Positions 1 to 9,383 of a stretch of 64,000 nucleotides of DNA are shown here, piece by piece. The stretch is from an uncultured bacterium (GTDB lineage Bacteria; Patescibacteriota; Minisyncoccia; Phycocordibacterales; UBA9973): contig CALCZP010000004.1 in the NCBI GenBank assembly GCA_937903035.1, positions 12,570-76,569 on the forward strand. Direction: 5' to 3'. How positions within the stretch are numbered: the first letter of the stretch is position 1; each line of letters starts with the position of its first letter. The notes under the pieces are model-generated. The model did no database searches and had not been told where the DNA came from. It was given only the letters and a program-made list of their open reading frames with translations. The position numbers were made by a program, and so were the translations under genes.

Positions 1-221
1 TTCTCTTTAATAAGAGTAAGTAGTTGGCTTTCACTCATGTCATTTACCAAAGCGACACCTTCAGAAAGAGCACTGTCCATTTTCTTAAGAAATTCTTTAT
101 CATCTTTTCGCCAACGATAAACACTATTACGAGATAGTCCTGTTTTCTCACATGCAACTTGAACTATTGGCACCTTCCGAAGTTCATCAAGGAACTGATC
201 TTGAAATTTATTCTTTTTCAT
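1..221 (-). CDS. Partial HTH protein resembling a phage terminase small subunit. The N-terminus is in the window and the C-terminus runs off the left edge.
   Basis: ATG at 219-221 (minus) gives MKKNKFQDQFLDELRKVPIVQVACEKTGLSRNSVYRWRKDDKEFLKKMDSAL..., an HTH pattern ('ACEKxGISRxTxYRWRK') typical of TerS-like proteins. It overlaps the stop of the upstream methylase by 14 nt. Confidence 0.4.
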   Translation of the reverse strand, partial: MKKNKFQDQFLDELRKVPIVQVACEKTGLSRNSVYRWRKDDKEFLKKMDSALSEGVALVNDMSESQLLTLIKE

Positions 222-1485
222 AGAAGTTCTTGATTACCTGTGCTTTGCGACCAGTTAATTTTTCGTATCTGCGAATTGCCAAATCGCAGAACACAGGTTC
301 TATCTCTAGGGAATAGACCTTTCGCCCAAGTTGTTCTGCACAGATCATGGTGCTTGCGGATCCAGAGAAGGCGTCAAAAATAATGTCTCCTGGTTTGGTG
401 CAACGCATAATAAACTTATGGTGGAGTTCAGGATTTTTACTTGTTGCATGCTCCATTTGATTTGCAGGAAGTCGTTTTGTCGCCCAGATATTTGAGATAT
501 CTTCTAGAAGCTGATTGCCAGTTCCGTAGTCTTTGTTTTGTACTTCGTTGAGATTTTTTACGAGATCAGAAATATATGGAGACCCTTTTGTGCCATACAC
601 GCAATACTCGAGGCACTTATTGAACGCCACGGTAGGTGTCGGCGATGAATTGTTTTTGATCCAGACATTGAGCCGTCTATTCTTAACTTCATGCTCCATA
701 TAGAGTGTTTGAAATACCCACACCCACGCTTCATCGCACCAGAAAGCGACGTGTACGTCCTTAGTAGATACAGCTAGTGAAGACTTAAGAACTTTGCGAA
801 TAAATTCTTTGTATTCTTCAGGTGATTGGTTGTCGTCAAATGTGCCACCATAGTTGGATTTATTGCCAACCCCTTTGTCATATGAAAGTCCGATATTAAA
901 GGGTGGGTCATTATATATAGCGGTAGCTTTATCATCGCCAAATAGTTTTTTAACGGCATTTATATCGGTTGAACTAGCACATAATAATTTGTGACCACCC
1001 ATGACAATCAGATCACCAGGTTTTGTTTGTGGTGTTTTGATTTTCTTTAATTCTTTCTCAACATCGAATTTATCGTCTTTAGTATCTTTTTCTTCGTCCC
1101 AAAACTTAACCAATTCTTTTTCGTTGAATCCAGCGAACTGTAAAAGCTCTAGATCAAATGACTTGAGCTTTTCAAAATCCCATTCGCCGTCGTTAATATT
1201 GCTTTCGATCGCAATCTTGCGACGTTCTTCGTCAGTCAATTTACGATCAGGAATCAACACATTTACTTGCTTAATACCGAGCTGTATCAAAGCAGTTTTT
1301 CTTTGATTACCTGAAATAATCGTATTGTCTGTATCAATAACGATTACACTATGAAAACCACTTTGAATGATCTTCTCTTTTAATTTTTCCATAGCGACCC
1401 GTGAGATTTTTCTTGGATTTTCTTTCCAAGGGAGCAGGTCTGTGACATCTCGAACTCCTGTTGTCCATGAAGGTTTTTTATTCAT
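208..1485 (-). CDS. ParB-like nuclease domain fused to a beta-class amino-DNA methyltransferase (N6-A/N4-C type)
   Basis: The N-terminal region is ParB/Srx-like. Motif IV 'YNDPPFNIG' precedes motif I 'FDAFSGSAST', which is the beta-class order. ParB-MTase fusions are typical of phage and mobile DNA. Confidence 0.8.
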   Translation of the reverse strand: MNKKPSWTTGVRDVTDLLPWKENPRKISRVAMEKLKEKIIQSGFHSVIVIDTDNTIISGNQRKTALIQLGIKQVNVLIPDRKLTDEERRKIAIESNINDGEWDFEKLKSFDLELLQFAGFNEKELVKFWDEEKDTKDDKFDVEKELKKIKTPQTKPGDLIVMGGHKLLCASSTDINAVKKLFGDDKATAIYNDPPFNIGLSYDKGVGNKSNYGGTFDDNQSPEEYKEFIRKVLKSSLAVSTKDVHVAFWCDEAWVWVFQTLYMEHEVKNRRLNVWIKNNSSPTPTVAFNKCLEYCVYGTKGSPYISDLVKNLNEVQNKDYGTGNQLLEDISNIWATKRLPANQMEHATSKNPELHHKFIMRCTKPGDIIFDAFSGSASTMICAEQLGRKVYSLEIEPVFCDLAIRRYEKLTGRKAQVIKNFYEKE

Positions 1486-1659
1486 AGAGTTTTTATTTAA
1501 TTACTTATAAATTTGTAGATGACTAATCTACTAACTCCATGAAATCAAAAAGGTACATAGTCATGTAATCACCACAAAATTGAGTAGTATAAAGAAAAAA
1601 CGCCTATTTAAAGGCGATTTTTCAAAGTTATCCACTCAACTTGGTGTCAACTTAGGAAT

Positions 1660-2292
1660 TTATTCTTTTTCTATGTGGATTTTTGGATTGATACGATACC
1701 CAGATCCTTTCTTTCCTTGAATGAGTTTCGTCTTCTTAGGAAGTCTTAGAGTGTTTATTGCGTAATCATTAAAAGTCTGAACCATTTTTGCTACCGCTTG
1801 TGATGAGGGGCAAGAGAGTATTCTTTGTAAGTCTTTTGTTTGTATATATGCATCTCGGTCAAGTAATGTTTCAAGTAATTTCTTTCTTTTTCCATTTTCA
1901 GTAAGGTCATATGAAAATAGTTTGCCGCCTAAATGTCTATCGAGCGATCCGTTATCTCTGTCGTAGATAATCACGTTACTATCTTGGCTTGAAGATAGAA
2001 GTCGCTTGTGATTTTTATTCAACTCCTGAAGTTCTTCTAAGATGTCATATTCAACAGGGCGACGATATACTATGGCTGGATATTCTACTGGCTCAAAAAG
2101 TTTTGCTTGTTCGCGAACGCGATTCATTTGTTCAATAATTGGTTGTGCAACTTTTTTGATATTTTCAATCATTTCAGCATGTCTTTTACCAATCTCTTGA
2201 AATTGAGAAATCTGCCCCTCACTTAAAGTAGGGGGATGTATTTTTGCCACCAGTTCACCAACAGTCATTGGTTTTTTCTGCTCGTCTGCCAT
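1660..2292 (-). CDS. Hypothetical regulator with a C-terminal OmpR-like winged helix, divergent from the LexA-like gene
   Basis: 210-aa ORF. The C-terminus '...KLIQGKKGSGYRINPKI' resembles a wHTH recognition wing. A hairpin terminator lies downstream. Confidence 0.4.
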   Translation of the reverse strand: MADEQKKPMTVGELVAKIHPPTLSEGQISQFQEIGKRHAEMIENIKKVAQPIIEQMNRVREQAKLFEPVEYPAIVYRRPVEYDILEELQELNKNHKRLLSSSQDSNVIIYDRDNGSLDRHLGGKLFSYDLTENGKRKKLLETLLDRDAYIQTKDLQRILSCPSSQAVAKMVQTFNDYAINTLRLPKKTKLIQGKKGSGYRINPKIHIEKE

Positions 2293-2350
2293 GTAGTTAT
2301 GATAGCAAATACTTGCTTTTTTGTATAGAGTAATTTATACTATTTATACC

Positions 2351-2968
2351 ATGACAAATAACCTAAGTGATAAAGATAAAAAAGCGTTTGCCCTTATCCG
2401 TAACAAGATTGTTCATTATGGCAAAAGTCCTACACTTAGTGAGATTAACGAGGTTACAGGTGGAGCTTCTCCACGATCTGCAAGCCTAGTAATTAATCGA
2501 CTAATCGATGCAGGACTTATAAAGAAAATCGGGCGACAACTTATCCTTACTGGATCACAGACAACAGCTTCAATAAGCACAGTTGATGTTCCGTTGGTTG
2601 GTGCTGTGACTTGTGGTGCTCCTGTTCTTGCCGAAGAAAATATTCAAGCACTAATTCCTGTCTCAACAGGTTTAGCAAAGAAAGGATCGAAATATTTTCT
2701 TTTGCGTGCTATGGGTGACTCGATGAATCTTGCGGGTATTAATAGTGGAGATCTGCTTTTGATTCGACAGCAAGATACAGCAGAAGATAATGAAAAAGTT
2801 GTTGCTCTTATAAATGACGAAGCAACCGTCAAAGTGTTCAAGAAAGCGAATGGTGCCGTTGTACTTCAACCGAAATCAACAAACAAAAACCACAAGCCGA
2901 TTATATTAACAGATAACTGCATCATACAAGGAGTAGTCGTTGCTGTACTTCCTGGTGATCTATATTAA
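2351..2968 (+). CDS. lexA: LexA-type repressor / S24 family autopeptidase (LexA or phage CI-like)
   Basis: The N-terminal domain resembles the LexA DNA-binding domain ('KKAFALIRNKIVHYGKSPTLSEINEVTGGASPRSASLVINRLIDAGLI'). A 'VGAVTCGAP' Ala-Gly cleavage region, the catalytic Ser in 'GDSM' and a Lys in 'KVFKK' are present. The start was moved to the ATG at 2351. Confidence 0.75.
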   Translation: MTNNLSDKDKKAFALIRNKIVHYGKSPTLSEINEVTGGASPRSASLVINRLIDAGLIKKIGRQLILTGSQTTASISTVDVPLVGAVTCGAPVLAEENIQALIPVSTGLAKKGSKYFLLRAMGDSMNLAGINSGDLLLIRQQDTAEDNEKVVALINDEATVKVFKKANGAVVLQPKSTNKNHKPIILTDNCIIQGVVVAVLPGDLY

Positions 2969-2972
2969 AAAT

Positions 2973-3200
2973 ATGGCAAAAAATATTCACACTGTTTACA
3001 ACTCAGAGCGTGGGATGTGGGAAAATAAAAAAGAAGGCTCTTCTTCTCCTGTTTCTTCGCACCACACAAAAGAAAATGCTCTTGATAGAGCAGAAAATAT
3101 TGCTGAAAAAGCAAAGGTCGAACATTTTATTCATGGTAAAGACGGAAAAATCCAGGAGCGTAACAGCTATGGAAACGATCCTTTCCCACCACGGGGTTAA
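2973..3200 (+). CDS. DUF2188 family small protein
   Basis: '...HGKDGKIQERNSYGNDPFPPRG' is the signature C-terminus of DUF2188/YjzC-like proteins. It starts 5 nt after the lexA-like stop and ends 6 nt before the next gene. Confidence 0.6.
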   Translation: MAKNIHTVYNSERGMWENKKEGSSSPVSSHHTKENALDRAENIAEKAKVEHFIHGKDGKIQERNSYGNDPFPPRG

Positions 3201-3206
3201 AACACT

Positions 3207-4130
3207 ATGGCTATTCCGCTTTCTCAACTGACAACATGGTCAAATCAGGGTGCTACTGTTTCAGCAAAAACAACACACGAATCTATTCGGACGGCACTAA
3301 CACACGATCAATCTCCACTTAAAGATCGTATCAGTAACGGCTCGGTAAAAATCTATCTCCAAGGATCGTATAAAAATGATACAAACATTCGAGCAGATAG
3401 CGATGTGGATGTAGTTGTCGAACTAACAACCACATTTGGTCATAATGCACACGAACTTCCTTATGATCAGAAAAATGCTCATGATCAGGCATACAGTAGT
3501 GCTGTTTATGATTGGCAAGATTTACGCAGAGATGTTATCTCTGCTCTGACTAAATATTACGGACTACTATCTGTTGATACAAGTGGTAATAAGTCAATTA
3601 AACTCAAACCTTCTTCAGGAAGGCTAAAGGCTGATATTGTTCCTGTTATAAATTATCGAAAATATGATTATTTTTATGGTACCACTAGCCATAATGCAGA
3701 AGAGGGTGTGAAGTTTTATCATCGCACAACAAATCGCGGAATTATAAATTATCCAGAGCACCACTATCAAAATGGAGTTAATAAAAATTCAGATACTCGT
3801 ACAGGTGGGCGTTTTAAACCAACAGTACGAATTTTCAAGAATATGAGAAACCATCTTGTTGATACAGGTAAACTTGCCGACGGTGTAGCACCATCATATT
3901 TCTTGCAGTCATTAGTTTATAATGTCCCTGATGAGCACTTCAATGGTGATAATTCCACAACCGTGCACGCCGTATTAAAACATCTCTGGTCTGCATTACC
4001 TTTGGGACAATGTGTGTGTCAAAACCATTTTCATGAATTATTTGGTGAAAGCGAGGAGCAATGGAATCAAGATGATGCGGTAAAAACTATTAGTGCTTTT
4101 GTAGAGCTTTGGGATAACTGGAATCAATAA
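3207..4130 (+). CDS. cGAS/DncV-like nucleotidyltransferase (CD-NTase / SMODS domain)
   Basis: 'IYLQGSYKNDTNIRADSDVDVVVEL' matches the [hQT]GS...DxD pol-beta NTase motif. The third acidic residue is in 'KADIVPV', and a helical C-terminal region follows ('PSYFLQSLVYNVP'). Confidence 0.7.
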   Translation: MAIPLSQLTTWSNQGATVSAKTTHESIRTALTHDQSPLKDRISNGSVKIYLQGSYKNDTNIRADSDVDVVVELTTTFGHNAHELPYDQKNAHDQAYSSAVYDWQDLRRDVISALTKYYGLLSVDTSGNKSIKLKPSSGRLKADIVPVINYRKYDYFYGTTSHNAEEGVKFYHRTTNRGIINYPEHHYQNGVNKNSDTRTGGRFKPTVRIFKNMRNHLVDTGKLADGVAPSYFLQSLVYNVPDEHFNGDNSTTVHAVLKHLWSALPLGQCVCQNHFHELFGESEEQWNQDDAVKTISAFVELWDNWNQ

Positions 4131-4132
4131 TT

Positions 4133-4732
4133 ATGCAAAATATACACCCATATTCAATAAATTCTGAAGAACACAAGTATGTATCGCTCTACCTTGCGGT
4201 ATTATCCATATTACTTGCTTGGGGTTTATATCTTTTCTCAAAAAATGTCTTTGTGCTTCCGTGGTGGATTGAGGCTCCTTCGGTGATTGGTTTTTACGGA
4301 ATTTTACATAAGTGGTTCGAGACTAAGTTATGGAGAAATAATTTTATTCGTAAAATTACTAGTATAAAAACTCCTATCGTAGATGGAAATTGGTCTGGAA
4401 CCATAACATCTCATTCAAATCATGCTAACGGTCCAATACAGATTAAGAAATTTTGTATTAAACAAACGTGGACTCATCTACTTATTTATCTAGAAACAGA
4501 AACATCCGAATCTTTCAGTTTTGAGGCATCAATGAATGTTGATGAGTTTGGAACGGCTCGAATACATTATCAATACAGAAACAAACCAAAAGATAATGCT
4601 CCCGAAAGTATGCACATACATGAAGGATCAGCATCTGCAAAACTAGAAGATGAAGGAACGCTTCAAACAGAGTATTACTCAGGTAGAGATCGTAACAATA
4701 CAGGCTCTTTTGAAGTTAAAAAGTTACAATAG
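4133..4732 (+). CDS. Two-transmembrane effector (SLATT / Cap15-like) with a beta-rich C-terminal domain
   Basis: Two hydrophobic helices (LYLAVLSILLAWGLYLF and APSVIGFYGILHKWF) are followed by a ~130-aa soluble domain. The gene starts 2 nt after the CD-NTase stop, so it is in the same operon. Confidence 0.6.
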   Translation: MQNIHPYSINSEEHKYVSLYLAVLSILLAWGLYLFSKNVFVLPWWIEAPSVIGFYGILHKWFETKLWRNNFIRKITSIKTPIVDGNWSGTITSHSNHANGPIQIKKFCIKQTWTHLLIYLETETSESFSFEASMNVDEFGTARIHYQYRNKPKDNAPESMHIHEGSASAKLEDEGTLQTEYYSGRDRNNTGSFEVKKLQ

Positions 4733-4757
4733 ATTGTAACTTTTATAGTCAATCCTG

Positions 4758-4784
4758 TGTCACTTTTGTCACTTTTTATCACTC
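4758..4784 (+). repeat. Three closely spaced direct repeats, GTCACTTTT / GTCACTTTTT / ATCACTCG (candidate iterons or operator)
   Basis: Read directly from the sequence just downstream of the 2TM gene stop. They are followed by TATAAT-like 'gatataat' at about 4796-4803. Confidence 0.4.
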
Positions 4785-4875
4785 GACAAGGGTCGATCTG
4801 ATATAATTAGAAAAGCTAAAAAAGCTTTGTGGTGCAATGAATCCCAAGGTCGCACCACGACTAGGCTCACAAAGC

Positions 4876-4903
4876 AAAAAGCGCTTCGCAAGAGGCGCTT
4901 TTT
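4876..4903. terminator. Rho-independent terminator hairpin, bidirectional
   Basis: AAAAAGCGC-ttcgcaagag-GCGCTTTTT, with T/A runs on both sides. Confidence 0.6.
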
Positions 4904-5095
4904 GCTTTGTGATTTTTTCAGCATATATGTTGAAAAAAGAATCGAACCGGGAAAGGGTCGGGAAACGGGAGTTTCCCGTGGAGGAAGGCAGGCGAAGCCG
5001 TTGGAAAACCGTGGGTTTCCAAAGTGTGAGATAATGAAATGTCCCCGTAGGGTCACTATTTAGAGAGCCCTCGAGAAGCGTCATAATAAATTACT

Positions 5096-5785
5096 ATGAA
5101 AAGACAAAACAACATACAAGCACAAATTAAAAGAGCCTCAGAAATTTTACCGAAAATCGAACAAGAATATAATAACTCTCTACACAAAAAAGAAGTTAGT
5201 GACGATTTAAAATTGGATATTCAAACTTTTTTAGGACACTTAAGATCTGCCTTAGATTACTTATCAAAGGATATAATTGAAAAATATTGTCCTAATGTAG
5301 ATAAATCATATTTCCCAATTAGGCATGACAAAAATTCTTTTATGAAAATGATGTCCGAATCTTATCCGGAGCTTATTTCACATTCTCCTGCTCTATACTC
5401 ATATCTGGAATCAATACAGCCATATACTAATTCGGATAACTCATGGCTAGCTCATTTCAATAAACTTAATAATGAAAACAAACATAACGATTTAGTTGAA
5501 CAAATACGAACAGAAACCGAGAGGGTTAATGTGGAGATTAATGGGGGTGGTAGTGTAAATTGGGACCCTTCGGCAGTTAGATTTAGTGGACCAGGTGTTT
5601 ATATAGGAGGAGTTCCTGTGGATTTTAATACTCAAATACCAGTACAATCAAATACTCAAACTGTAACTATCCAAACATGGATTGATTTCAAATTTAGTGA
5701 TATTGAAACTTCTGCCCTTCACTTACTAAAAGAGTCACTAAGCAAAATAAAAGATATAAACACTGAGATTGTTAAATTTCTATAA
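5096..5785 (+). CDS. Hypothetical protein (229 aa), first gene of a low-GC cassette
   Basis: Long ORF in a very AT-rich segment. The N-terminal half looks helical and the C-terminal half is Gly/Val-rich. No motif was recognised. Confidence 0.5.
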   Translation: MKRQNNIQAQIKRASEILPKIEQEYNNSLHKKEVSDDLKLDIQTFLGHLRSALDYLSKDIIEKYCPNVDKSYFPIRHDKNSFMKMMSESYPELISHSPALYSYLESIQPYTNSDNSWLAHFNKLNNENKHNDLVEQIRTETERVNVEINGGGSVNWDPSAVRFSGPGVYIGGVPVDFNTQIPVQSNTQTVTIQTWIDFKFSDIETSALHLLKESLSKIKDINTEIVKFL

Positions 5786-5802
5786 TTATTGGAAATAATA
5801 TT

Positions 5803-6468
5803 ATGATTGGCGCAATATTAAAACTTTCATATAACCAAATTGGAGAAAATACTATTATTGGGGGTATATGTGGGACGTGTTTTGCTATTGATAGACATAG
5901 GTTACTAACAGCTGAACATATTATTTCTAAAAATAGTTTTACACCGGACAATGGCTTTGAGAAAGTGCGGTACTGGGCATTACTTGAGTCTGGTCAAAAT
6001 ATTGAGATATATAAAAATAACATAGAAAGTAAAAGAGAAAAAGATCTTAGTATTATAAAAACATCTAAATGGATAAATGGTAAAGTTCTAAAAGTAATAA
6101 ATTCTGAGACAAATATTAACTCAACATGTGGGAATTATGGATACACAGCAAGAACAATGCCTGACATAGATGGTGCTTGGAGTAAAAGAAAATTCAATAT
6201 TAAGTTCCATTCTTTACAAGAAAACAGAATTCATTCAAGCGGTTATGTTAAATCAATAAAAAATGCAGAAGTTAATACTAATGATTTAAATTTAAAATCA
6301 AGAATCCTAGAACTTAGTTATGGCGGTCGAGAAGGTATGTCGGGCGGCTGTTTACAAAATGAAAATAATGAAATAATTGGTTTGATGTCATTTGGGTTAC
6401 CTCCAGATCAAGCAGTAAAAAATATTCTATTCGCAGTTGATATAAGAGAAATTATAAATTATTTATAG
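5803..6468 (+). CDS. Trypsin-like (S1/chymotrypsin fold) serine protease with no signal peptide
   Basis: Catalytic triad context: His in 'LLTAEHII', Asp in 'DLSIIKT', Ser in 'GMSGGCL'. There is no N-terminal hydrophobic segment. Confidence 0.65.
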   Translation: MIGAILKLSYNQIGENTIIGGICGTCFAIDRHRLLTAEHIISKNSFTPDNGFEKVRYWALLESGQNIEIYKNNIESKREKDLSIIKTSKWINGKVLKVINSETNINSTCGNYGYTARTMPDIDGAWSKRKFNIKFHSLQENRIHSSGYVKSIKNAEVNTNDLNLKSRILELSYGGREGMSGGCLQNENNEIIGLMSFGLPPDQAVKNILFAVDIREIINYL

Positions 6469-7430: not shown

Positions 7431-8243
7431 TTAAGCCATAACACGTTTTTTGGAAGGATATAGACTTTTTGCTCTCTGTATATAGAGTTTTGTAACATCA
7501 ACATCCAGATGATCACCAGGTCTGCCTGATTTGGTCAACTGGCTTTGAGCATCAATACTCACCCCATATCGTTTTACAAGCTCAGCTACTCTCCACACCG
7601 TCTTGGGACCGAGAGCTCCGGCAACTGTAAACTGCAGTTCACTGGTAAGGTTACAAATACCATCAATATATCCCTCAACACCTGGAAGATCTATTGCGTA
7701 GCCTTCCCCGCCAGATGCGTCAATGAGTACATGAGAAATAATACCAACATAGTGCTTCACTTCATGAGCAATTTTTATCGGATCCTCATTGTGCATATAC
7801 ATTGCATCTCTTCCAATCTGAAGGATAAGATCAATGTCAGGACATTTTTTCTTGAATGCTTCAAGCTCAGCAGGATCTGGCCATATCATGTCGAGCTGTA
7901 AAGCTTTCATGTTGGGACCACAAAGATCTACTACTGATGAAAGCTCTGCACATAGATGAAATCCCCGATCTGCATCATAATTTGCATAATGCACAGAGTT
8001 TACTATGCGACAATCTCGAACACTGAAAATATCTTTCAATGTTGTAACTGATGGATAGACACTTGCATGCTTTGTTGGCTTATCATGAAGTATCTTGTGA
8101 CTGGTCATAGCGCCAACCATAAACTGAGGGGTACTTTCATCAAAACCAGGAAGCACTTTCCATACTTCCATAACCTGCTCACCTGACTGAAATCCACAAG
8201 CACCAATGTAGGTACCTAATTTTTTTGTTTGTTTTTGTTGCAT
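7431..8243 (-). CDS. TIM-barrel protein of the TrpF (phosphoribosylanthranilate isomerase)-like family
   Basis: The C-terminus 'GVSIDAQSQLTKSGRPGDHLDVDVTKLYIQ' resembles the PRAI 'GVDVSSGVE..pG.KD' motif. No other trp genes are nearby. Confidence 0.4.
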   Translation of the reverse strand: MQQKQTKKLGTYIGACGFQSGEQVMEVWKVLPGFDESTPQFMVGAMTSHKILHDKPTKHASVYPSVTTLKDIFSVRDCRIVNSVHYANYDADRGFHLCAELSSVVDLCGPNMKALQLDMIWPDPAELEAFKKKCPDIDLILQIGRDAMYMHNEDPIKIAHEVKHYVGIISHVLIDASGGEGYAIDLPGVEGYIDGICNLTSELQFTVAGALGPKTVWRVAELVKRYGVSIDAQSQLTKSGRPGDHLDVDVTKLYIQRAKSLYPSKKRVMA

Positions 8244-8366: not shown

Positions 8367-9383
8367 TTATAATGCTTTTTCGATTTCAATAAGCTTTTTA
8401 ACTCCATTGTAGAGCTGCTCATAAATCTCACGCTCAGTCACTCCTAAGCGACGTTTATTTGAGATATCATAGATACCATCTGATGATTCAGAATGTTCTC
8501 CATGTACACCACGGATTGATAATCCGAGTGTGCCACAAATTGCTTTGAAATTTTGACTGTTTGAAAACTTTGGAATCCTAATATGTACTGATGCACGCAT
8601 TGCAGTTCCAAGGTTTGTCGGACAAGTCGTGTGATACCCACGAAGATCATCAAATGCAAAGTTGATTTTCTCATTGATAAAATTCAATGCTGTTGCCAAT
8701 CGGGTAAACACTTCAGCGATGTCAGCTCCTGGCTGCATACTTATGATACGCATACTGTCTTCTTCTGAAACCCAGACAAGGAATTTCTTGTCGTCAGAAA
8801 AGAAAATTCCACGATTCTTTGGCCAATCACGATTTACACCGGCACTTTCCAAGAAACGGTCGCCTTGCTTGAACAAAAAATGATCCTCAACCATTTTGGC
8901 ACGAACTTCTTCGCTCATACCATCAAGTGGAAAATACTCACCCTTAAGTGTTCCTGGGAGTTGTTTCAATGCTTCAATAATTTCGGATTCCATAGCAGCA
9001 CGATCTTCTGCTGAGATAGCAGAAGGAAAAGCATACTTTGCAAAATTACGACCAACACGAATACGGGTTGATACAACATAATTACCTTCAGGGTCTAAGT
9101 TTTCAACAGGAAGACCGGTGAGTGAGAAATCACTCTTATGCCCGCTCATATCATAATTATGATACTCCTTGATAACAGGATCAAAAAGAGAGGCAAGTAT
9201 AGTATACGATTCAGGATCTCCTGCATATACACCAATACTGGAGTCCTGGTTATCAATACCAGACTGAATTGCCTTTTGAAGAGTCCAGCCATGTGGTGTA
9301 ACAGCAGTAGCTAGCTGTTCTTGTACTTGTTCAGTACAATGCTTTTTCATTAACATGTCAGGGTTTTGTGTGTTTTTTGTCAT
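8367..9383 (-). CDS. Arginine kinase-type phosphagen (ATP:guanido) kinase, full two-domain form
   Basis: Active-site 'CPTNLGTAMRASVH' and 'KKFLVWVSEEDSMRIISMQPGADIAEVF' are classic AK/CK motifs. An N-terminal guanidino-substrate domain is present ('SGIDNQDSSIGVYAGDPESYTILASLFDPVIKEYH'), so this is not a McsB-like protein. It has its own terminator. Confidence 0.8.
   Translation of the reverse strand: MTKNTQNPDMLMKKHCTEQVQEQLATAVTPHGWTLQKAIQSGIDNQDSSIGVYAGDPESYTILASLFDPVIKEYHNYDMSGHKSDFSLTGLPVENLDPEGNYVVSTRIRVGRNFAKYAFPSAISAEDRAAMESEIIEALKQLPGTLKGEYFPLDGMSEEVRAKMVEDHFLFKQGDRFLESAGVNRDWPKNRGIFFSDDKKFLVWVSEEDSMRIISMQPGADIAEVFTRLATALNFINEKINFAFDDLRGYHTTCPTNLGTAMRASVHIRIPKFSNSQNFKAICGTLGLSIRGVHGEHSESSDGIYDISNKRRLGVTEREIYEQLYNGVKKLIEIEKAL

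Follow-up and report, generated by a model that had tools for sequence, protein, structure and literature searches.

A LexA-type repressor leads an exchangeable defence-cassette slot that holds a type I CBASS in a CPR bacterium

It is an open question how abortive-infection systems are held silent but at the ready. Regulators of defence operons that respond to DNA damage have been described in three families: CapW, CapH/CapP and CapK/CapS. CapH/CapP consists of a helix-turn-helix (HTH) repressor and a separate metallopeptidase activated by single-stranded DNA, encoded upstream in the opposite orientation (Lau et al. 2022, bioRxiv 10.1101/2022.04.27.489752). CapW/BrxR and CapK/CapS are described as local repressors beside diverse immune operons, whose expression rises after DNA damage. 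According to a preprint, some defence genes fall in the LexA regulons of regulatory-network databases; such membership differs from a dedicated LexA paralogue heading an operon. Here we describe an operon of the latter kind, which bears on the question of quiet readiness. It lies at positions 2351-4732 of a 64,000-nucleotide stretch (the window) of contig CALCZP010000004.1, from an uncultured bacterium of the candidate phyla radiation (CPR). In it, a LexA-type repressor with an S24 peptidase domain precedes a type I cyclic-oligonucleotide-based antiphage signalling system (CBASS). Comparison with other loci shows that the repressor, often accompanied by a second, small gene (for example, DUF2188), is the conserved leader of an exchangeable slot for defence cassettes, and that CBASS is one of many cassettes in this slot.

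The four plus-strand genes are separated by intergenic gaps of 4, 6 and 2 nt, and a terminator scan found no plus-strand terminator-like site inside the group, which is one tightly packed operon. Its genes, and a terminator-like site beyond them, are as follows.

2351-2968, plus strand: LexA-type repressor, 205 amino acids (aa), with an N-terminal winged HTH and an S24 peptidase; Cys88-Gly89, Ser124, Lys161 (Pfam, LexA profile, PHROGs).
2973-3200, plus strand: DUF2188 protein, 75 aa (Pfam DUF2188, PADLOC PDC-S16).
3207-4130, plus strand: CdnE, a clade-E CD-NTase and the CBASS cyclase (PADLOC, 6e0k profile, invariant residues).
4133-4732, plus strand: Cap15 effector, with two transmembrane helices and a cyclic-dinucleotide-binding beta-barrel (Pfam, PADLOC, 7n34).
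4868-4911, plus strand: terminator-like hairpin with a GC-containing 20-bp stem, followed by a run of T (sequence scan).

The third gene matches the PADLOC CBASS cyclase model at 3e-106, and its profile finds the solved CdnE structures 6e0k, 6e0m and 7x4f at 4.8e-103 (6e0k) and below. The GS...DxD...D signature is present, with G53, S54, D66, D68 and D143 invariant in 28 sequences. The product of the fourth gene matches Pfam Cap15_CD_rec (2.1e-27) and Cap15_TM (2.4e-8), the PADLOC 2TM effector (4e-57) and the solved Cap15 structure 7n34 (2e-9). Pfam and PADLOC scans of eight neighbouring proteins revealed no Cap2/Cap3 or HORMA/TRIP13 accessory genes among them. Thus, CdnE and Cap15 make up a complete CBASS of type I. 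The second gene matches Pfam DUF2188 at 3.8e-19 and the PADLOC candidate PDC-S16 at 1.3e-27.

For the repressor itself PADLOC offers no model. Pfam Peptidase_S24 is matched at 5.5e-27, and the PHROGs match is a transcriptional repressor/UmuD-like family (2e-19). A profile built from 21 members of the repressor family covers residues 2-196 of E. coli LexA at 5e-32 and also matches the isolated LexA DNA-binding domain 1lea at 1.2e-5; PF01726 is present in many of the homologues. The C88-G89 cleavage site and the S124/K161 dyad are invariant over 21 homologues. C88-G89 aligns with the VAAGEP segment of E. coli LexA, which holds the Ala84-Gly85 cleavage site, and S124 and K161 align with the GMSM and VTVK segments, which carry Ser119 and Lys156. 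More than 1,800 homologues are found at E <1e-10, and hundreds of these, 75-80% identical and 205 aa long, are labelled 'repressor LexA' in CPR assemblies. An earlier note on this DNA had proposed, at the same positions and on the same strand, a close-packed set of four genes: a LexA-type winged HTH and an S24 peptidase in a single polypeptide, a DUF2188 protein, a CD-NTase and a two-transmembrane effector. The open reading frames, the profile matches and the intact catalytic and cleavage residues bear out each of these assignments.

The linkage between repressor and CBASS was counted in the 80 closest CdnE loci, collected by a genome scan with a CdnE alignment (loci are cited by our own numbers). 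An S24 gene lies directly upstream of CdnE, on the same strand, in L001, L002, L003, L005, L009, L015, L017, L019, L024 and L028, where CdnE is 47-98% identical to that of the window. The S24 gene of L009, divergent in sequence, was overlooked by tblastn with the window repressor and was found with a local hidden Markov model. Three further loci (L004, L006, L008) are cut at a contig edge, with the S24 end or DUF2188 visible. In L010 and L011 the S24 gene is divergent from CdnE, and that of L010 is fused to a DNA methyltransferase. The other 65 of the 80 loci have no adjacent S24 gene and are mostly outside CPR, with CdnE and Cap15; conservation of the linkage is thus confined to a subclade. 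What stands between S24 and CdnE differs from locus to locus. It is DUF2188 in the window, L001, L003, L009 and L024; an uncharacterised protein of 303 aa in L002 and L005; and a protein of 97, 68 or 69 aa in L015, L017 and L019, respectively, the last with a weak match to DUF3892. In L028 no gene intervenes. The earlier note had left room for a chance insertion, and conservation in at least 10 loci shows that the arrangement is not one.

Is the repressor, then, a CBASS regulator? The DNA of L173, a locus from IMG/VR, is 94% identical to window positions 1-2987, and its repressor is 99% identical in amino acid sequence, but the genes behind it encode a 123-aa protein, a ThsB-type TIR protein and a 189-aa protein. 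The similarity to the window ends at 2987 and resumes at 4709-4872. This places the cargo slot at about 2988-4708 and shows that the cassette has been exchanged between conserved flanks. Since a nearly identical copy precedes a TIR cassette on the same backbone, the repressor is not specific to CBASS. In P0178 the same backbone is followed by a metallo-beta-lactamase-fold protein (PADLOC PDC-M48B, 2e-68) and two uncharacterised proteins, with Shedu on the opposite strand.

The wider context of the repressor was sampled in 79 loci from metagenomes whose S24 homologue is 49-96% identical to that of the window. A same-strand gene begins within 250 nt downstream of S24 in 64 of them (median gap, 4 nt), and for 49 of these 64 the gap is at most 20 nt. 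CBASS, in three architectures, is the commonest class of cargo, at about 11 loci: SAVED-endonuclease with cyclase and E2 in about eight, CdnE with Cap15 in only two, and a DncV-like cyclase with TIR-STING in one. The third of these architectures is seen in L121 (601-3047), where the S24 homologue is followed by the DncV-like cyclase, a 163-aa protein and the TIR-STING effector. The PDC-M48B set is found in eight loci. Type II restriction-modification cassettes comprise Dam methylase, DpnII and a further methylase (five loci) or a methylase with TdeIII (two). Thoeris-like cassettes pair ThsB-TIR with ThsA-Macro (three) or with an uncharacterised protein (four). A Bub-like E1 system of ThiF/DUF6791 and DUF6527 accounts for three loci, and a caspase and a 650-aa deaminase for two each. 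Several further cargo families are unassigned, including the 303-aa, 232/158-aa and 94+94-aa proteins. No classical SOS repair gene was seen among the downstream genes examined. The earlier note's CBASS-specific switch thus gives way to a repressor with about a dozen other cargos, which looks like a general DNA-damage switch before an exchangeable defence slot. The object of interest is correspondingly broader than CBASS: a slot of this kind in CPR bacteria that is headed by a LexA-type repressor, alone or followed by a small protein.

The right end of the slot is marked by a block that is common to loci with unrelated cargo.

4717-4779, plus strand: right end of the cargo slot, with a hairpin, a run of T and GTCACTTTT repeats.

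This block of about 60 bp is 77-92% identical in L104, L017, L093, L015, L109, L103 and L100. An AT-rich hairpin at 4723-4740 spans the Cap15 stop codon. The block is a probable terminator and recombination flank.

DUF2188 goes with the repressor as part of the leader and not with the CBASS genes. It stands behind the repressor in 10 of the 79 metagenomic loci, before at least five types of cargo, and two other families of small proteins recur behind the repressor in the same way. The family has a near-invariant C-terminal tail, S-Y-G-N-D-P-F-P-P-R/K-G (SYGNDPFPPRG in the window), which is modelled at low confidence and could be a docking or degradation motif.

Some related gene arrangements were also noted. 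In L196 (4001-7041), from a metagenome-assembled genome (MAG) of Saprospiraceae, DUF2188 leads an operon that lacks an S24 gene and encodes a Bub-like ubiquitination system (Multi_ubiq, DUF6791-ThiF and BubE). A 303-333-aa protein directly follows S24 or DUF2188 in L002 (7055-7999), L005 (7088-7999), L110 (9593-10594), L134 and L141. It stands alone or before CdnE-Cap15 and has no Pfam or PHROGs match, and represents a cargo or accessory family yet to be characterised. Fusions of LexA DNA-binding and S24 domains to DNA methyltransferases are found in L010 (6400-7923, N6_N4 type) and in L190-L195 (C5 type), each of which has the fusion as a 524-aa gene at its right edge. These fusions adjoin a CdnE gene or stand near DUF2188 loci; such a protein looks like a self-cleaving repressor-methylase.

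The operon is preceded by a short region that it shares with a divergent gene.

2293-2350, no strand assigned: divergent control region, 58 bp (sequence; conservation over 47 loci).

The rightward promoter consists of a -35 box, TTGCTT, at 2313-2318, a 17-nt spacer and a -10 box, TATACT, at 2336-2341, with the ATG at 2351. Only 9 nt separate the -10 box from the start codon, so the mRNA from this sigma-70-type promoter is apparently leaderless or nearly so. Putative operator repeats are GTATA at 2323-2327 and TATAC at 2336-2340 and 2345-2349; between them, the three extend over spacer, -10 box and start site. Upstream regions of 47 non-redundant homologue loci (repressor at least 59% identical) were aligned at the start codon and gave the consensus cTTg..TTTTTgTAtA...t.tTtTATACTtTTTATACc, followed immediately by the ATG. 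In the same loci, TATAC/GTATA occurs 2.5 times per 45 nt upstream, compared with a background of 0.076, a 33-fold enrichment, and within the 64-kb window the exact TATAC-N4-TATAC occurs a single time. More distant homologues retain TTGACA-N17-TATACT-like promoters, with GTATAC- or CATAC-type repeats in equivalent places. A scan for sigma-70 promoters alone is uninformative (12 sites, with 12.8 expected), so that the promoter is called from its conservation among the loci. At 2327-2299, overlapping the first repeat, lies a promoter-like site that points leftward. The overlap of the TATAC/GTATA repeats with the -10 box and start site argues for autorepression through these putative operators. 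It fits the autoregulation presumed in the earlier note.

What would such a repressor do for the cell? We think it fairly probable, taken as a whole, that the repressor holds the operon and that cleavage stimulated by RecA on single-stranded DNA (RecA*) derepresses the defence genes. A repressor dimer on the TATAC/GTATA repeats would keep its own operon at a low basal level and would probably also hold the divergent leftward operon. Upon DNA damage or phage replication, single-stranded DNA would form, and RecA bound to it would stimulate self-cleavage of the repressor at Cys88-Gly89 by Ser124/Lys161. The levels of CdnE and Cap15 would then rise. In response to a phage cue, CdnE would make a cyclic dinucleotide; its solved relatives are named cyclic dipyrimidine nucleotide synthases. 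Cap15 would bind the cyclic dinucleotide and permeabilise or disrupt the membrane, and the infection would be aborted. The linkage, promoter and cargo results all come from sequence analysis, from which we infer operator binding, RecA dependence and co-transcription. Several points weigh against this mechanism. The repressor heads the operon that it would control, so derepression would replenish it as well, and induction may be short-lived or slight. In a survey of transcriptomes, chiefly from E. coli strains, the expression of defence systems was negatively correlated with that of recA, and SOS induction of defence is thus not a general rule. Finally, the window repressor scores 21.1 bits with Pfam LexA_DNA_bind, below the curated cut-off of 23.7 bits; despite this score, the family profile assigns its predicted N-terminal domain to the LexA-type winged HTH.

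The surroundings of the operon bear on the alternatives. To its left lie three minus-strand genes.

1-221, minus strand: 5' part of a terminase-small-subunit-like/HTH gene, truncated at the window edge (full length 135 aa).
208-1485, minus strand: ParB-N-domain/N6_N4 DNA methyltransferase (Pfam N6_N4_Mtase 3.3e-27, ParB_N weak; PHROGs 3.9e-71).
1660-2292, minus strand: uncharacterised 210-aa protein, divergent from the repressor gene (no Pfam, PADLOC or PHROGs match).

The complete 135-aa gene lies at 7464-7871 of the window's own contig (L203, in which window position 1 is 7651), and its homologue in L003 matches the PHROGs terminase small subunit (TerS) at 2.3e-9. The terminase large subunit (TerL) is matched in PHROGs at 2e-76. 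Together with the PHROGs match of the methyltransferase, these support the phage-derived neighbourhood claimed in the earlier note. The ParB-methyltransferase is kept beside S24 in about 20 loci, and the gene position immediately left of the repressor varies among families of 210, 173, 140 and 119 aa. On the window's own contig, TerL abuts a diversity-generating retroelement (DGR; L203 2993-5854, 1.8-4.7 kb left of the window), with a reverse transcriptase, bAvd, a template repeat (4450-4584) and a variable repeat (4952-5086). The variable repeat lies in the 3' end of a 301-aa gene, and 20 of its 21 mismatches fall on template adenines. In L002, L003 and L005, a unit of 8.1 kb, from a large serine recombinase to the end of the cargo, is shared at 87-90% DNA identity between unrelated flanks; window 1-4871 matches L001 and L003 at 89-91%. 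No integrase or recombinase was found within 10 kb on the window's own 405-kb contig. Within that distance, the phage and mobile genes of these loci are only TerL, TerS and the methylase, plus the DGR or the serine recombinase. With no capsid, tail, lysis or replication genes nearby, this is not a complete prophage. In L019, L024, L081, L116, L160 and L161, the S24-cargo unit lies off the terminase backbone. In the last four it adjoins a serine recombinase alone; in L019, with no recognisable mobile genes in reach, it adjoins a gene of the Mg-chelatase/ComM type (ChlI family). We therefore concluded that repressor and cargo form a stable association, of which the terminase backbone is one carrier. 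An 8-kb serine-recombinase element with this repressor as its master was also considered, an idea weakened by the DGR on the window's own contig and by the units off the terminase backbone. The first 10 kb of the window has 35-38% G+C, compared with 40-48% elsewhere.

Some genes to the right of the element were also noted. At 5096-6468, again in low-G+C DNA, a 229-aa protein without a family is followed by a 221-aa trypsin-like protease resembling the protease domains of PADLOC RT-Protease_XI (1e-11) and LmuA (1e-9); the two may be a further defence pair. On the minus strand, 8367-9383 encodes an ATP:guanido phosphotransferase (arginine-kinase-like; Pfam).

The back-to-back arrangement of the repressor with phage-type genes over 58 bp, and the leftward promoter-like site over the first repeat, would also suit a repressor that works by the logic of lambda cI-rexAB. 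It would then mainly silence the divergent phage-derived genes (methylase, terminase), and the cassette would be a constitutive 'moron' that protects the host of the element. The promoter of the operon would be on in quiescence, and DNA damage would not be the trigger of defence. The lambda cI transcript from P_RM has a leaderless layout, which that of the present operon resembles, and the swapping of cargo between conserved flanks recalls prophage and satellite hotspots. However, in the repressor's own promoter the -10 box and start site lie under two of the three repeats, a position from which a protein represses rather than activates, and the S24-cargo unit is found off the terminase backbone. 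Furthermore, in the absence of capsid, tail, lysis and replication genes nearby, no lytic programme in need of repression is apparent, and we regard this explanation as unlikely. Still less likely, in our judgement, is that the repressor is the cell's own, and possibly only, SOS repressor, with an insertion hotspot at its 3' side where cassettes accumulate and are co-transcribed as a by-product. Its LexA architecture is full length, sources annotate it as 'repressor LexA', copies 75-80% identical number in the hundreds in CPR assemblies, and it is the single S24 gene in the 64-kb window. Yet the segment is 87-91% identical in DNA between MAGs of different species with unrelated flanks, its G+C content is lower than in the rest of the window, and most loci have gaps of 1-6 nt before the cargo. 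Moreover, the downstream genes examined include no classical SOS repair gene, and the exact repeat pair is found only once in the window.

That S24 and DUF2188 co-evolved with the CD-NTase and Cap15 as a dedicated CBASS regulator, comparable to CapH/CapP, could be argued from the S24 gene upstream of CdnE in at least 10 loci and from CBASS being the commonest cargo class. It is contradicted by the 99%-identical repressor before the TIR cassette of L173; most homologue loci carry cargo other than CBASS, DUF2188 accompanies at least five cargo types and S24 is not next to CdnE in 65 of the 80 closest loci. We consider it very improbable. A repressor that holds its defence operon until it is cleaved under RecA* is thus the explanation that we prefer, and it can be extended. 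A bolder extension, which we consider less likely than not, is a general, RecA-gated platform for exchangeable defence cassettes in CPR bacteria: the LexA-type repressor and DUF2188/DUF3892 adaptors would ride on a satellite-like terminase element, and RecA* arising in infection would at once arm abortive infection and derepress packaging of the island. In reduced CPR genomes, this repressor might even be the only LexA. If the platform exists, it would add a fourth class, with a mechanism of its own, to the immune regulators that respond to DNA damage. A LexA-type regulator would tie defence islands to the canonical RecA pathway, which is also the prophage-inducing signal. The genes directly behind these repressors offer a simple genomic marker for the discovery of defence genes, and the locus is evidence of a defence repertoire in CPR bacteria that is both rich and mobile; the small genomes of these bacteria have received little study of this kind.

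A full-text search of the accessible literature found no paper that combines CBASS, LexA and S24, and nothing equivalent to LexA-like/S24 regulators heading defence operons. The papers on CapH/CapP and CapK/CapS mention neither LexA nor S24, and that on CapW names LexA only in the title of a reference. Within this literature, the arrangement is undescribed, as the earlier note had supposed.

In comparison with known systems, the locus most resembles CapH/CapP in having a repressor, inactivated by proteolysis (predicted here), that controls CBASS on DNA damage and belongs to a family found with many defence systems. DUF2188 and DUF3892 proteins occur in operons linked to CapH/CapP (Lau et al. 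2022, 10.1101/2022.04.27.489752, who credit the predicted defence role of these proteins to Burroughs and Aravind 2020), as they do in the window and L019, respectively. Their presence behind two unrelated types of protease-controlled repressor points to a shared role. In contrast to CapH/CapP, one polypeptide here combines the DNA-binding domain with an S24 serine peptidase that RecA* presumably stimulates, the regulator is first in the operon and on the same strand, and Pfam and PADLOC identify no metallopeptidase at the locus. The locus differs from CapW/BrxR (wHTH-WYL-WCX) and CapK/CapS in that Pfam finds no WYL domain and no kinase, and sensing would be by RecA*-stimulated self-cleavage rather than by direct binding of single-stranded DNA or phosphorylation. 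The cyclase and effector families, the order of cyclase then effector and the lack of Cap2/Cap3/HORMA genes are those of known type I CBASS (6e0k, 7n34); the repressor and DUF2188 genes preceding them in the same operon, and the CPR host, are not.

The order of domains and the Ser/Lys dyad are as in E. coli LexA and UmuD, with a Cys-Gly cleavage site, as in UmuD, in place of the Ala-Gly of LexA. Unlike LexA and UmuD, the repressor is carried on horizontally moving, phage-derived DNA, and its visible targets are only its own defence operon and the divergent genes. The putative TATAC operator is unlike the published LexA boxes compared, a set without a Patescibacteria motif. Lambda cI-rexAB and the satellite hotspots likewise have defence genes directly behind an S24-family repressor on phage-derived DNA, with swapped cassettes; one preprint describes such defence hotspots in P2-like prophages and P4-like satellites. 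The present locus differs in that its virion genes are limited to the terminase subunits, the N-terminal domain of the repressor is of the LexA rather than the CI/XRE type and the repeats are positioned to repress the repressor's own promoter. Defence gated by DNA damage and cargo hotspots on phage-derived elements are already known; as far as we have searched, the type of regulator, its leader position on the same strand and the CPR setting are new.

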